A stretch of DNA of 64,000 bases from Dictyostelium discoideum (lineage: Eukaryota): positions 1,440,001 through 1,504,000 of the forward strand of contig CM000154.2 of the NCBI GenBank assembly GCA_000004695.1, read 5' to 3'. Position numbers and translations under genes: made by a program. A model generated the notes under the pieces. The model saw only the letters and a program-made list of their open reading frames with translations. It did no database searches and was not told where the DNA came from. Position 1 is the first letter of the stretch. The number at the start of each line of letters is the position of its first letter. This document shows positions 33,461 through 52,015 of the stretch, piece by piece.

Positions 33461-33519
33461 GTTGGCCTTACAGCAAATTCTCACAAATTTTTACTGATTA
33501 AAAAAAACCCCTTGTCAAC
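33461..33519 (+). ncRNA. Class I RNA (Dictyostelid-specific small ncRNA)
   Basis: The sequence is GTTGG-CCTTACAGCAA-ATTCTCACAAATTTTTACTGATTAAAAAAAACCCCTTGTCAAC. The exact conserved 11-nt Class I motif CCTTACAGCAA lies immediately after a 5' GTTGG. This GTTGG can pair with the 3' TCAAC (33515..33519) to form the terminal stem characteristic of the class. The length is about 59 nt. A DUSE lies upstream. The location is the efbA/accA convergent intergenic region. Confidence 0.55.
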
Positions 33520-34053
33520 TGTCCACTTTTATTTTTTTTTTGTTTGTTGTCCTGAAACGGGGATAATTTTTTGTGAATGACAAATTATCCACTATTTAAT
33601 GTATCAGTGAAAAAAATTTAAAACAAGATCCAAGCAATTTTAAATTTCTAAACGATTTCTTTTGTAAAATTTACAGACTAAGAAAATTAACATGCAAAGC
33701 TTATTTTATTCTGGAATCTGTGCTTTCGAATATATTTACTTTGCCCAATTCATATAATTAACTACAATTTCAATATTAAATTTATCGATTTAATTCATTT
33801 AATTTAAAACATGGGTGTATTAAAAAAAAAAAAAAAAAAAAAAAATAATAATGCACTAAATTTTAAAATTCTTTATTTGCTAACTCAAACAAAAAAAAAA
33901 AAAAAAGAAAAACTACTTTACATTTTAAAATTAAAATTCATAAATAAAACTATTTCATTGTTTATTCCTTTAATGTATAAACACTGATTAATCAATATTA
34001 AAAAAAAAAAAAAAAAAAAAAAGTAAACCAACAAGTAAAAAAAAAAAGTACAA

Positions 34054-49691: not shown

Positions 49692-50102
49692 TTATTTTTG
49701 TGTTTCTTTACTATATGAATATTTAACTTGACAAATTCTAATTTCATAATGTTCATACCAATTTGTTATTCCAAATTTTTGTGCTATTTTATGATTTGAA
49801 TTATCTTTCCAATTTTTAATAGAATTCAAGGATTCCCAATATGAAACTGTGATACCAAATCTTGAATGATCATTTCTTGTAGATTCTATACCAAGATAAC
49901 CATCTTGTGATTTTGCTAATTCATCCATTTCATCTTTATTTTAAAATGTTAATAAACATTAAACCAATGGGTTGGGATATTTTAATATTTTAAAGAAATA
50001 TGTACCTGCCATTTTATTATATTCTTCATTATATTCTGATGTTCTTATACTTGAAAATATACAAGCATAATAATCTTTTTTTGGTGTTTTCGCAAATACC
50101 AT
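49692..50102 (-). CDS. ABM (antibiotic-biosynthesis-monooxygenase/Dabb-like) small protein, 2 exons
   Basis: Structure is complement(join(49692..49933,50006..50102)). Exon 1 is MVFAKTPKKDYYACIFSSIRTSEYNEEYNKMA, then G|GTACAT (an atypical donor). Exon 2 is (D)EMDELAKSQDGYLGIESTRNDHSRFGITVSYWESLNSIKNWKDNSNHKIAQKFGITNWYEHYEIRICQV.... The pattern Y..E.W.S.....W......H..A...G...WY..Y.IR matches the ABM fold. Confidence 0.6.
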
Positions 50103-50134: not shown

Positions 50135-50396
50135 TTAAAAATGAAAAAAAAAATAAAAAATTATTTTTGTGGAAAAAAAAAAAAAAAAAAACAAAAAAAA
50201 AAAGTAATATAATAATTTAATTTGTGAAGATTTTTTTATTTACAATTTTGTGTTTAGATTAATTTATATATAGGGTTGTTTTTTTTTATTTTTTTTTTAT
50301 TTTTTTTATTTTTTTATTTTTTTTTTTTTTTATTTAATTGAAATTAAAAACTTTGGAAAAGAGAAATATACAATTTGAAATTCAATTTGAATTTAT

Positions 50397-50660
50397 TCAT
50401 CCAAGTAAATAATGTTCATCAACTTCTGGGTCAAATTCTCTAGAGTTATCAATATGTGGCCAAACTAAACCTTCAACTGGCTTTTGAACTAAATTGTCAT
50501 CAAGATTTCTATCAACTCTTTTAACTGGTCGTGGATCAAACTCATCGTCAAGTTCTTTATCAACCTTGAATCTAACAGATTTTGGCTTTAATGCATCCTT
50601 GGCTGCTTTAAAATTAGCAGAATCCATAACCTCTTCATCTACATTTGAATGTGTGTTTCC

Positions 50661-50663
<3 letters not shown>
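50397..50663 (-). CDS. Small protein (88 aa) with N-terminal myristoylation consensus MGNTHSN; member of a tandemly duplicated pair
   Basis: The ORF is MGNTHSNVDEEVMDSANFKAAKDALKPKSVRFKVDKELDDEFDPRPVKRVDRNLDDNLVQKPVEGLVWPHIDNSREFDPEVDEHYLLG*. The N-terminus has Gly2 and Ser6, the N-myristoyltransferase consensus. Confidence 0.6.
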
Positions 50664-50692
<29 letters not shown>

Positions 50693-51223
50693 TTTTTTTT
50701 TTTTTTTTTAAAAAGTAAATATTTGTTTTTTTTTTTTAAATAAATATTATTATTTTTTAAAAATTAAGGTTTGTATTTTTAAAGTTTTGTTAAAATTATA
50801 AAAATCTATTTAAATTAAAAAAAAAAAAAAAAAAAAAAAATATTTTAATTTAAAATAAAAAAAAAAAAAAAATAATAAAAAAAAAAAAAAAATTAAAATA
50901 AAATTAAAAAAACCTTTTTTTTCCCTTATTTAAATAAAACCTTGGTATCTATTAAAAATTTTTCAATTTTAAATTTCCAATTTCCAATTTCCAAAAGGTG
51001 GAATTGAATTAAGATTAAAAAAAAAAAAATAAAAAAAAATTAAATTTGGGTTGCAATTCTATATATTTTGAAATATATTAATTTTTTATTTACAAATGTG
51101 TATAGATATTTTTAATTTTTATTTTTATTTTTATTTTTTTTTATTTTTATTTTTATTTTTGTTTGAATTGAAACTAAAACTTTGGAAAAGAGTTAAACCG
51201 CACAATTATTTGAATTTATTTAT

Positions 51224-51445
51224 TTATCCAAGTAAATAATGTTCGTCAAATTCTGGGTAAAGTTCTCTAAAGTTATCATTATGTGGCCAAACTAAACCTT
51301 CATCTGGTTTTTGATATAAACGATCATTAAGATTTCTATCGACCTTGGATTTGTTAACAATTTTAGGATTTAATGGTTCTTTGGGTGGTTGGAATTTATT
51401 TGAATCCATATTCCATTCACTTAAATTTGATTGTGTATTTCCCAT
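51224..51445 (-). CDS. Small protein (73 aa) with N-terminal myristoylation consensus MGNTQSN; paralogue of 50397..50663
   Basis: The ORF is MGNTQSNLSEWNMDSNKFQPPKEPLNPKIVNKSKVDRNLNDRLYQKPDEGLVWPHNDNFRELYPEFDEHYLLG*. It shares with its neighbour MGNT.SN, DRNL.D.L.QKP.EGLVWPH.DN and EHYLLG*. The 3' flank (about 60 bp, ...aactttggaaaagag...) is also duplicated. Confidence 0.6.
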   Translation of the reverse strand: MGNTQSNLSEWNMDSNKFQPPKEPLNPKIVNKSKVDRNLNDRLYQKPDEGLVWPHNDNFRELYPEFDEHYLLG

Positions 51446-52015
51446 TATTATTATTATTAAAATTATTATTTTTTTTTATTTAATTTTTTTATTGTTATTG
51501 GTTTTATTATTTTTTGAAACTAAATAATACTAATATCCAATTTTTTTTTTTTTTTGTTTGGAAAAAAAAAAAAAAAATTAATTAAAAAAAAAAAAAAAAA
51601 AAAAAATTAAATTTAAATAAATTTACCTTTACCTTTTTTTTTTTCCCTTAATTAAATTATAAACTTCCAATTGTTAAAAGGTTATTTATAAAAAAAAAAA
51701 AAAAAAAATTTTTGTTTGTTTAGTGAAATTCGGAAAGACACTCTGTTTTTAAAAAAAAAAAAAAATAATAATTAAAAAATAGATTTTTTTCCTAATTTGA
51801 GGTTTCTTTATAGAAAAATTGTTTAAACAATTTTAATTTTTTTATTTGTAATTATTTTAATTTACATTTTTATTTTATAAATTATTATTATTATAAATAA
51901 AATTTTTGTTATTATAATATTAAAATTATTGTTGTTTTATTACAATAATTTTTTTTTTTTTTGAATAAAAATAAAAGGAAAAAAAGAAAAAAAAGGAAAA
52001 AAAAAAAAAAGACTG

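Follow-up and report, generated by a model that had tools for sequence, protein, structure and literature searches.

Tandemly duplicated late spore genes of Dictyostelium discoideum code for small acidic proteins with a predicted N-myristoylation motif

We have analyzed a stretch of 64,000 nucleotides (nt) from chromosome 5 of Dictyostelium discoideum AX4 (GenBank assembly GCA_000004695.1, contig CM000154.2, positions 1,440,001 to 1,504,000 of the forward strand). This whole stretch is called the window, and all coordinates refer to it. The window is strongly A+T-rich, with 14–35% G+C when measured over 2 kb at a time. It contains a pair of small single-exon genes on the minus strand, DDB_G0288397 and DDB_G0288399, which form a tandem duplication. 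The first is the promoter-distal copy, the second is the upstream copy. Both are already annotated as "hypothetical" genes. A preliminary description, made from the sequence alone, had proposed that a small protein-coding gene is duplicated in tandem here, with two open reading frames (ORFs) of 88 and 73 amino acids on the minus strand. Both reading frames are found where it placed them, with the same starts and ends, and the duplication itself is borne out by the paralogy of the products and by direct repeats which are in register. The main features are the following:

50397–50663, minus strand: ORF of DDB_G0288397, 88 amino acids and a TGA stop, MGNTHSN...DEHYLLG, an exact match to XP_636728.1 / Q54J02 (ORF list, translation, exact database match, spore mRNA, protein detection).
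51224–51445, minus strand: ORF of DDB_G0288399, 73 amino acids and a TAA stop, MGNTQSN...DEHYLLG, an exact match to XP_636729.1 / Q54J01 (ORF list, exact database match, spore mRNA).
50232–51668, minus strand: the whole tandem duplication (repeat families D5, D9, D10, D13, D15 and D16, together with the DNA alignment).

The two proteins are paralogs, with 52% identity over 88 columns (63% over shared residues) and an expectation value (E) of 9e-28 in a pairwise BLASTP comparison. Their alignment has one indel only, of 15 amino acids and in frame. When this indel is removed, 46 columns are invariant, including MGNT.SN, VDRNL, QKP.EGLVWPH.DN.RE and DEHYLLG. The genes are found in two head-to-tail units, A (about 50232–50945) and B (about 51082–51668), each with its own upstream block, ORF and block in the 3' untranslated region (3'UTR). 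The similarity between both units at the DNA level reaches past the ORFs into both flanks, and the repeat families listed above have a start-to-start spacing of 722–850 bp, which agrees with the unit of about 830 bp given in the preliminary description. We estimate the length of the duplication as about 780–830 bp. A tblastn search for further copies, which had been suggested for the whole genome, was run on the window: exactly two members of the family are found, DDB_G0288397 and DDB_G0288399.

The 15 amino acid difference in length between the paralogs is due to an internal repeat in the larger protein, which had not been noticed before. Residues 33–48 of DDB_G0288397 repeat residues 49–64, while the 73 amino acid protein has a single copy of this 16-residue unit. 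The ungapped self-alignment of both repeats has a score of 40, a value reached in 9 of 2000 shuffles. Judging from the two sequences, the difference in length arose through a small in-frame duplication, or through the loss of one repeat. The extra segment is located as follows:

50520–50567, minus strand: extra segment KVDKELDDEFDPRPVK of the 88 amino acid protein, which repeats the next 16 residues, RVDRNLDDNLVQKPVE (50472–50519).

Several features of the ORFs set them apart from their surroundings. Their G+C content is 30–35%, while that of the flanks is about 10%. An alignment of the flanks of units A and B requires many indels, in contrast to the single in-frame indel between the ORFs. We have simulated drift at the observed nucleotide divergence of 22.5%, with the local base composition; the ORF stays open in 0.3–0.5% of the trials. 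An intact ORF at this divergence is thus unlikely under drift (P about 0.004). When the paralogs are compared, the ratio of nonsynonymous to synonymous substitutions (dN/dS) has an overall value of 0.79; the N-terminal third has about 1, the C-terminal core 0.63. Codon bias in highly expressed genes may depress dS and hence raise this ratio.

Both genes have a very clear pattern of expression. We have used the k-means table in supplementary file 5 of Kin et al. 2018 (PMC6198379), where the data of the time course (Parikh 2010) and those of purified cell types come from independent experiments. In the time course, DDB_G0288397 has values of at most 0.6 from hr00 to hr20 and rises to 349 at hr24; the values for prespore and prestalk cells are 1.2 and 0.3. 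In purified cells, it reaches 3867 transcripts per million (TPM) in spores, compared to 0.7 in cup, 26 in stalk and 1.3 in vegetative cells. DDB_G0288399 does not exceed 5.3 up to 20 h and has a value of 42 at hr24, with 1103 TPM in spores, 1.0 in cup, 7.3 in stalk and 0.5 in vegetative cells. Both genes are placed in k-means cluster 1, described as "almost exclusively expressed at 24 h", together with celA, celB, gerA-C and iptA (PMC6198379). The spore enrichment and the 24 h expression which define late spore genes are found in both cases: They are terminal-differentiation spore genes, and in mature spores their transcripts belong to the abundant mRNAs.

The larger protein has also been detected. 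In a 2026 life-cycle proteome, XP_636728.1 / Q54J02 was found by liquid chromatography with tandem mass spectrometry solely in fruiting bodies, with a signal of 1.73e6 in replicate F1 and none in F2 (PMC12821622, spreadsheet S1). Its abundances are given at the protein level. The same work also lists DDB_G0288397 as STRING input for its late-development clusters 5–8. The preliminary description had proposed a check of expression, and had named lack of transcription or decaying copies as signs that these were not genes. Both copies are transcribed, as seen by RNA-seq, one is seen as protein, and no frame-disrupted copies have been found. A separate observation concerns DDB_G0288399, whose mRNA is increased 2.93-fold in vegetative ATG9-null cells (PMC8204557, Table S1); the same list includes several stress genes as well as gerE. 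This hints that the gene is inducible outside sporulation when autophagy is defective.

Very short ORFs in extremely A+T-rich DNA full of repeats might correspond to a decaying non-coding repeat, or to an artefact of annotation. This explanation has virtually no chance of being right: transcription is abundant and specific of a cell type, one product has been detected at the peptide level, the ORFs are preserved with a coding composition unlike that of their flanks, and no Rfam family matches here. DDB_G0288397 and DDB_G0288399 are almost certainly real, translated, spore-specific genes. From the timing of their expression, their function belongs to the maturation, dormancy or germination of spores. 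They might, for example, provide stored mRNAs for proteins which act mainly at germination, as in the case of celA, celB and gerA-C. The shared k-means cluster with known germination factors would fit this suggestion, as would a protein signal in fruiting bodies which is weak, and limited to one replicate, despite the very high amount of mRNA. Nevertheless, the 88 amino acid protein can already be seen in fruiting bodies, where the same data set also shows celA protein to be abundant, so that belonging to this cluster does not imply delayed translation. We consider stored mRNAs very unlikely as the main explanation. In any case, they are a rival as to timing only, which is compatible with the mechanism based on myristoylation proposed below.

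The products are small acidic proteins, as had been described, with isoelectric points of 4.7 (88 amino acids) and 5.2 (73 amino acids). Their grand average of hydropathy (GRAVY) is -0.94 and -1.28, respectively. AlphaFold2, used with the two-row alignment, gives a predicted local distance difference test (pLDDT) of 58.9 and a predicted template modeling score (pTM) of 0.12, the model is coil with essentially no secondary structure. The products are predicted to be disordered.

The absence of any known domain, also noted in the preliminary description, is confirmed by the Pfam, Protein Data Bank (PDB) and profile searches. The only Pfam match at E up to 10 is noise (Lipoprotein_19, E 0.17), and a profile search for relatives in the PDB gave noise only (E 1.7). 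Homology to TUSC2/FUS1, suggested by the C-terminus of this protein, was rejected: BLASTP against human TUSC2 has an E of 0.56, and Pfam PF15000 is not matched. An exhaustive HMMER search with the two-sequence profile in 1.84 billion cluster representatives found only the two proteins and P0003 (E 1e-4). The latter is a low-complexity ORF of 291 amino acids, in which a tandem repeat of about 57 amino acids with PVAGLVWTQTS occurs five times, each time matching PV.GLVW; it is almost certainly a spurious match, its likeness to PVEGLVWPH being due to chance. Two word-index searches of 5.8 billion clusters gave the query proteins only; the sensitivity of this kind of search for such short proteins is limited, since the first one with a single sequence missed the paralog. 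In metagenome contigs, the back-translated N-terminal patterns gave 177 pattern matches, none of which was confirmed by tblastn. Among annotated proteins, this family appears to be restricted to D. discoideum.

These results might suggest orphan genes of recent origin which do little or nothing: an ORF placed behind a strong late-spore promoter would have been duplicated and would now be drifting, its common motifs being due to shared ancestry. No homologue is found in either of the large collections, dN/dS is about 0.8 and no fold is predicted, all of which would be expected in such a case. On the other hand, both ORFs are intact, which drift seldom allows in our simulations, and their sole indel is in frame in spite of flanks full of indels. 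Furthermore, the C-terminal core is better conserved than the remainder, the coding G+C is threefold that of the flanks, and it would be costly to express a useless protein so strongly. We consider functionless orphans to be highly improbable.

Both ORFs start with Met-Gly, and neither has an upstream start codon in frame. The sequences GNTHSN and GNTQSN match the pattern G-{EDRKHPFYW}-x(2)-[STAGCN]-{P} (PROSITE PS00008 type, applied as a regular expression). The favored residues Asn3 and Ser6 are present in both N-termini, and Pro7 is absent. The consensus for N-myristoyltransferase with Gly2 and Ser6, which had been pointed out in the preliminary description, is therefore found in both proteins:

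50643–50663, minus strand: codons for MGNTHSN, predicted N-myristoylation motif of DDB_G0288397 (translation, pattern match).
51425–51445, minus strand: codons for MGNTQSN, predicted N-myristoylation motif of DDB_G0288399 (translation, pattern match).

Six of the seven N-terminal residues are identical in both paralogs, compared to 10 of the next 24, which form a linker. A MGNTxS start is also found in the beta-1 subunit of AMPK, which is myristoylated. From these motifs, it is likely that both proteins are co-translationally myristoylated.

The other conserved part is the C-terminal core, VDRNL.D.L.QKP.EGLVWPH.DN.RE..PE.DEHYLLG, in which 30 of 42 residues are identical between paralogs:

50400–50525, minus strand: C-terminal core of DDB_G0288397, VKRVDRNLDDNLVQKPVEGLVWPHIDNSREFDPEVDEHYLLG (30/42 identity, dN/dS 0.63, ends in DEHYLL before the last residue).
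51227–51352, minus strand: C-terminal core of DDB_G0288399, KSKVDRNLNDRLYQKPDEGLVWPHNDNFRELYPEFDEHYLLG (alignment to its paralog).

Both proteins end in the same seven residues, DEHYLLG, within a part for which disorder is predicted, and DEHYLL matches the pattern [DE]xxxL[LI]. A role of DEHYLLG as an acidic-dileucine sorting signal is speculative.

We propose the following mechanism. The initiator methionine would be removed and N-myristoyltransferase would add myristate to Gly2 during translation; the candidate myristoylated N-terminal peptides are GNTHSNVDEEVMDSANFK and GNTQSNLSEWNMDSNK. Myristate would then act as a weak, reversible tether to the cytosolic face of a membrane, or to a lipid-binding partner. 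The conserved 40 C-terminal residues (VDRNL...EGLVWPH...DEHYLLG) would be the working module, a binding region of the linear-motif type, for which a contact of the acidic dileucine with an adaptor complex is one candidate. The proteins would act in spore maturation, dormancy or germination. Taken as a whole, an explanation with paralogous late spore genes, disordered myristoylated proteins and a C-terminal module is the best we have found, and we lean slightly in its favor. That the proteins act at a membrane through their C-terminal motif is a more tentative suggestion, which we consider less likely than not. As a still bolder proposal, they might represent a hitherto unrecognized class of lipid-tethered, disordered and acidic spore-dormancy proteins, born in or very near the D. 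discoideum lineage, with reversible recruitment to membranes or trafficking adaptors, for instance upon acidification and dehydration of the spore cytosol. Spores would require them to mature, to stay viable for long or to germinate in time. We regard this as quite unlikely.

Several points weigh against this explanation. Drift retains the N-terminal motif in about 15% of the simulations, so its conservation is weak evidence for myristoylation. According to the two-signal rule, myristate alone provides weak and reversible membrane binding, and the search for a second membrane signal failed: Neither protein has any cysteine, polybasic cluster or hydrophobic segment. Both have a net negative charge, with 21 acidic (D+E) and 13 basic (K+R) residues in the 88 amino acid protein, 12 and 9 in the 73 amino acid protein. 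Residues 8–17 are acidic or neutral, and residues 9–11 are acidic in the larger protein. With no second signal and a net negative charge, we would expect at most a weak and reversible binding, or a lipid lodged in a protein pocket. Stable membrane anchoring of either protein is doubtful. As to the C-terminus, we estimate that [DE]xxxL[LI] would be matched by chance in about one of every seven proteins of such composition. The high overall dN/dS indicates weak constraint or fast divergence, and our searches gave no orthologue by which to gauge conservation over longer times. The proteome signal of the larger protein comes from a single replicate, and the 73 amino acid protein of DDB_G0288399 was not detected in the same life-cycle proteome (PMC12821622). 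In summary, the preliminary description was right about a duplicated coding mini-gene, acidic products, the absence of a known domain and the N-terminal motif. Its term "membrane-anchored" goes beyond what the sequence allows.

A different explanation is that both are soluble spore protectants similar to hydrophilins or late embryogenesis abundant (LEA) proteins, working in bulk on the cytoplasm or on macromolecules in desiccation and dormancy, the MG...S start being incidental or its myristoylation irrelevant. Their mRNA is extremely abundant and spore-specific, the proteins are strongly hydrophilic, acidic and predicted to be disordered, there is no second membrane signal, and a fast evolution of the sequence is typical of such proteins. 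The criteria for hydrophilins give a less favorable picture. Glycine amounts to 3.4% (3/88) and 4.1% (3/73), while more than 6% is required. A hydrophilicity index above 1 (Garay-Arroyo) is only found in the 73 amino acid protein, with its GRAVY of -1.28. Neither LEA nor any other Pfam family is matched, and conservation is found in motif-like residues (MGNT.SN, EGLVWPH, DEHYLLG) rather than in composition, which points to specific recognition. A protectant role appears rather unlikely to us, and myristoylated proteins with a C-terminal binding module remain our preferred explanation.

Comparison with known systems places the pair between several groups of proteins. Like hydrophilins, LEA proteins, the small acid-soluble spore proteins (SASP) of Bacillus and yeast Hsp12, they are small, hydrophilic and disordered (by prediction in our case), and belong to products which are very abundant, and specific, in dormant cells tolerant of desiccation. 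They differ in having glycine under the threshold and no Pfam match to LEA, SASP or Hsp12, as well as in the lipidation motif and the motif-like residues. BASP1/NAP-22, the N-terminus of MARCKS, SVIP and TUSC2/FUS1 share the Met-Gly start and Ser/Thr at position 6. They are also short and hydrophilic, with no fold or transmembrane segment, and our proteins would likewise make use of a lipid tether and short motifs. Nevertheless, no sequence relationship to any of them is found; moreover, the surroundings of the lipid are basic in BASP1 and MARCKS (the myristoyl-electrostatic switch), while the proteins of DDB_G0288397 and DDB_G0288399 are acidic.

HIV-1 Nef and LAMTOR1/p18 combine an N-terminal lipid signal with [DE]xxxL[LI], represented here by DEHYLL in both paralogs. 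In Nef and LAMTOR1, the combination of lipid and acidic dileucine serves for binding to adaptor complexes and endolysosomal targeting. There are also differences: The cores of these proteins are folded or form complexes, and LAMTOR1 carries palmitate in addition, while our case is a pattern match without homology. The position of the dileucine also differs, since here it lies one residue from the C-terminus of a disordered chain of 73–88 amino acids. In Dictyostelium, hisactophilin, a pH sensor, is a precedent for a small myristoylated protein which binds reversibly to membranes, through a myristoyl switch which depends on pH. It is a folded, histidine-rich beta-trefoil, while the proteins of the pair are disordered, have 2–3 histidines and show no detectable similarity to it. 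Another parallel is the hssA/2C/7E family, made up of small dictyostelid-specific genes, many of them duplicated, with a very late and very strong expression in one terminal cell type (PMC6198379). These genes are specific of cup cells and have two exons and an unrelated sequence (PMC6198379). The pair described here is specific of spores, each gene has a single exon, and the family apparently has two members.

Non-coding blocks are conserved on both sides of the ORFs:

50335–50363, minus strand: 3'UTR block, copy A, CTCTTTTCCAAAGTTTTTAATTTCAATTA on the minus strand, 34–62 nt past the stop (repeat families D5 and D13).
51165–51192, minus strand: 3'UTR block, copy B (direct repeats, exact 15-mer, AATAAA positions).
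50912–50945, minus strand: upstream block, copy A, CCAAGGTTTTATTTAAATAAGGGAAAAAAAAGGT, 249–282 nt before the ATG (repeat family D16, alignment, 17-mer).
51631–51668, minus strand: upstream block, copy B, GGAAGTTTATAATTTAATTAAGGGAAAAAAAAAAAGGT, 186–223 nt before the ATG (repeat family D16, alignment, 17-mer).

The consensus of the 3' block is CTCTTTTCCAAAG(T)TTTTA.TTTCAATT. It is found 32–62 nt past the stop codons and directly before AATAAA, and thus inside the presumed 3'UTR. The 15-mer AACTTTGGAAAAGAG is exact at 50349–50363 and 51178–51192 and is found nowhere else in the window; 0.53 chance matches would be expected when up to two mismatches are allowed. The duplicated 3' flank mentioned in the preliminary description is real. 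No Rfam match which might suggest an RNA gene in this block was found in the region.

The upstream block, which had been overlooked, has the consensus AAG(G)TTT.AT..TTTAA.TAAGGG-A8-11-GGT and is placed 186–282 nt before the ATG codons. Its 17-mer core is exact at these two sites only, and both copies form repeat family D16, with 95% identity. It is a candidate for a shared promoter element, with a putative regulatory role, in DNA which otherwise has about 10% G+C. A CArG box, the site for SrfA, was considered and rejected: The sequence is GGG-A8-GG, not CC(A/T)6GG. A scan for promoters and terminators of bacterial type gave counts equal to those expected from shuffles, and such a scan is irrelevant for a eukaryote. 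Besides these blocks, a tandem array with three GGAAATT units, TTGGAAATTGGAAATTGGAAATTT, is found at 50966–51003 (minus strand), about 310–340 nt upstream of the ATG of DDB_G0288397. It is confined to unit A, at the junction between the duplication units, and might be either a regulatory element or a scar of the duplication.

The pair has neighbors on both sides. Downstream, 49692–50102 (minus strand) has the look of a small gene with two exons. An ORF of 78 amino acids (49692–49928) has a weak similarity to Pfam ABM/monooxygenase af470-like domains (E 4e-4, below cut-offs), and one of 47 amino acids (49959–50102, minus strand) could be the first exon of this ABM-domain-like gene. Upstream, the ORF at 52016–53071 (minus strand) has a domain of the PRP38 family (E 4.6e-24), after which comes a long tail rich in Arg, Asp and Ser (RD/RS-like). 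The start of the domain falls outside the ORF, so an upstream exon is likely. Further away, 33461–33521 (plus strand) matches the full Rfam model Dicty_Class_I_RNA (RF01414) with 48.8 bits, above the gathering threshold of 41.5, and is a gene for a Class I non-coding RNA just downstream of the acetyl-CoA carboxylase gene. An ORF for a second-largest RNA polymerase subunit of the Rpb2 type (54498–59084, plus strand) contains an intein-like insert at residues ~433–889, which ends in VSHNC. This insert has a Hint module, long tracts rich in Asn and Gln and a Pfam Intein_splicing score of 33.6 bits (cut-off 35.8). It is presumably the known Dictyostelium RPC2 intein.

Both loci had been annotated before, and their expression values are already present in public supplementary tables. 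In our search of the literature, the identifiers DDB_G0288397 and DDB_G0288399 were not found in the main text of the papers searched, they are absent from the supplements of Gloeckner et al. 2016 and from those of the SpaA paper, and no Dictyostelium myristoylome was found. The new elements are the definition of the family, the association of late spore specificity with a predicted lipidation motif, the repeat inside the larger protein and the two conserved non-coding blocks. Spore specificity and the apparent restriction to one species were also missed in the preliminary description.

In summary, DDB_G0288397 and DDB_G0288399 probably combine two known types: small, disordered proteins of the myristoylated type, and the lineage-restricted late-development mini-genes of Dictyostelium. 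The pair is found among highly expressed genes and is small enough for a deletion of both copies in a single step. If this had no phenotype, they would merely be another case of duplicated orphan genes; nothing here overturns current understanding. If they are functional, they would represent a species-restricted gene family, possibly originated de novo, which has been recruited to a terminal cell type.

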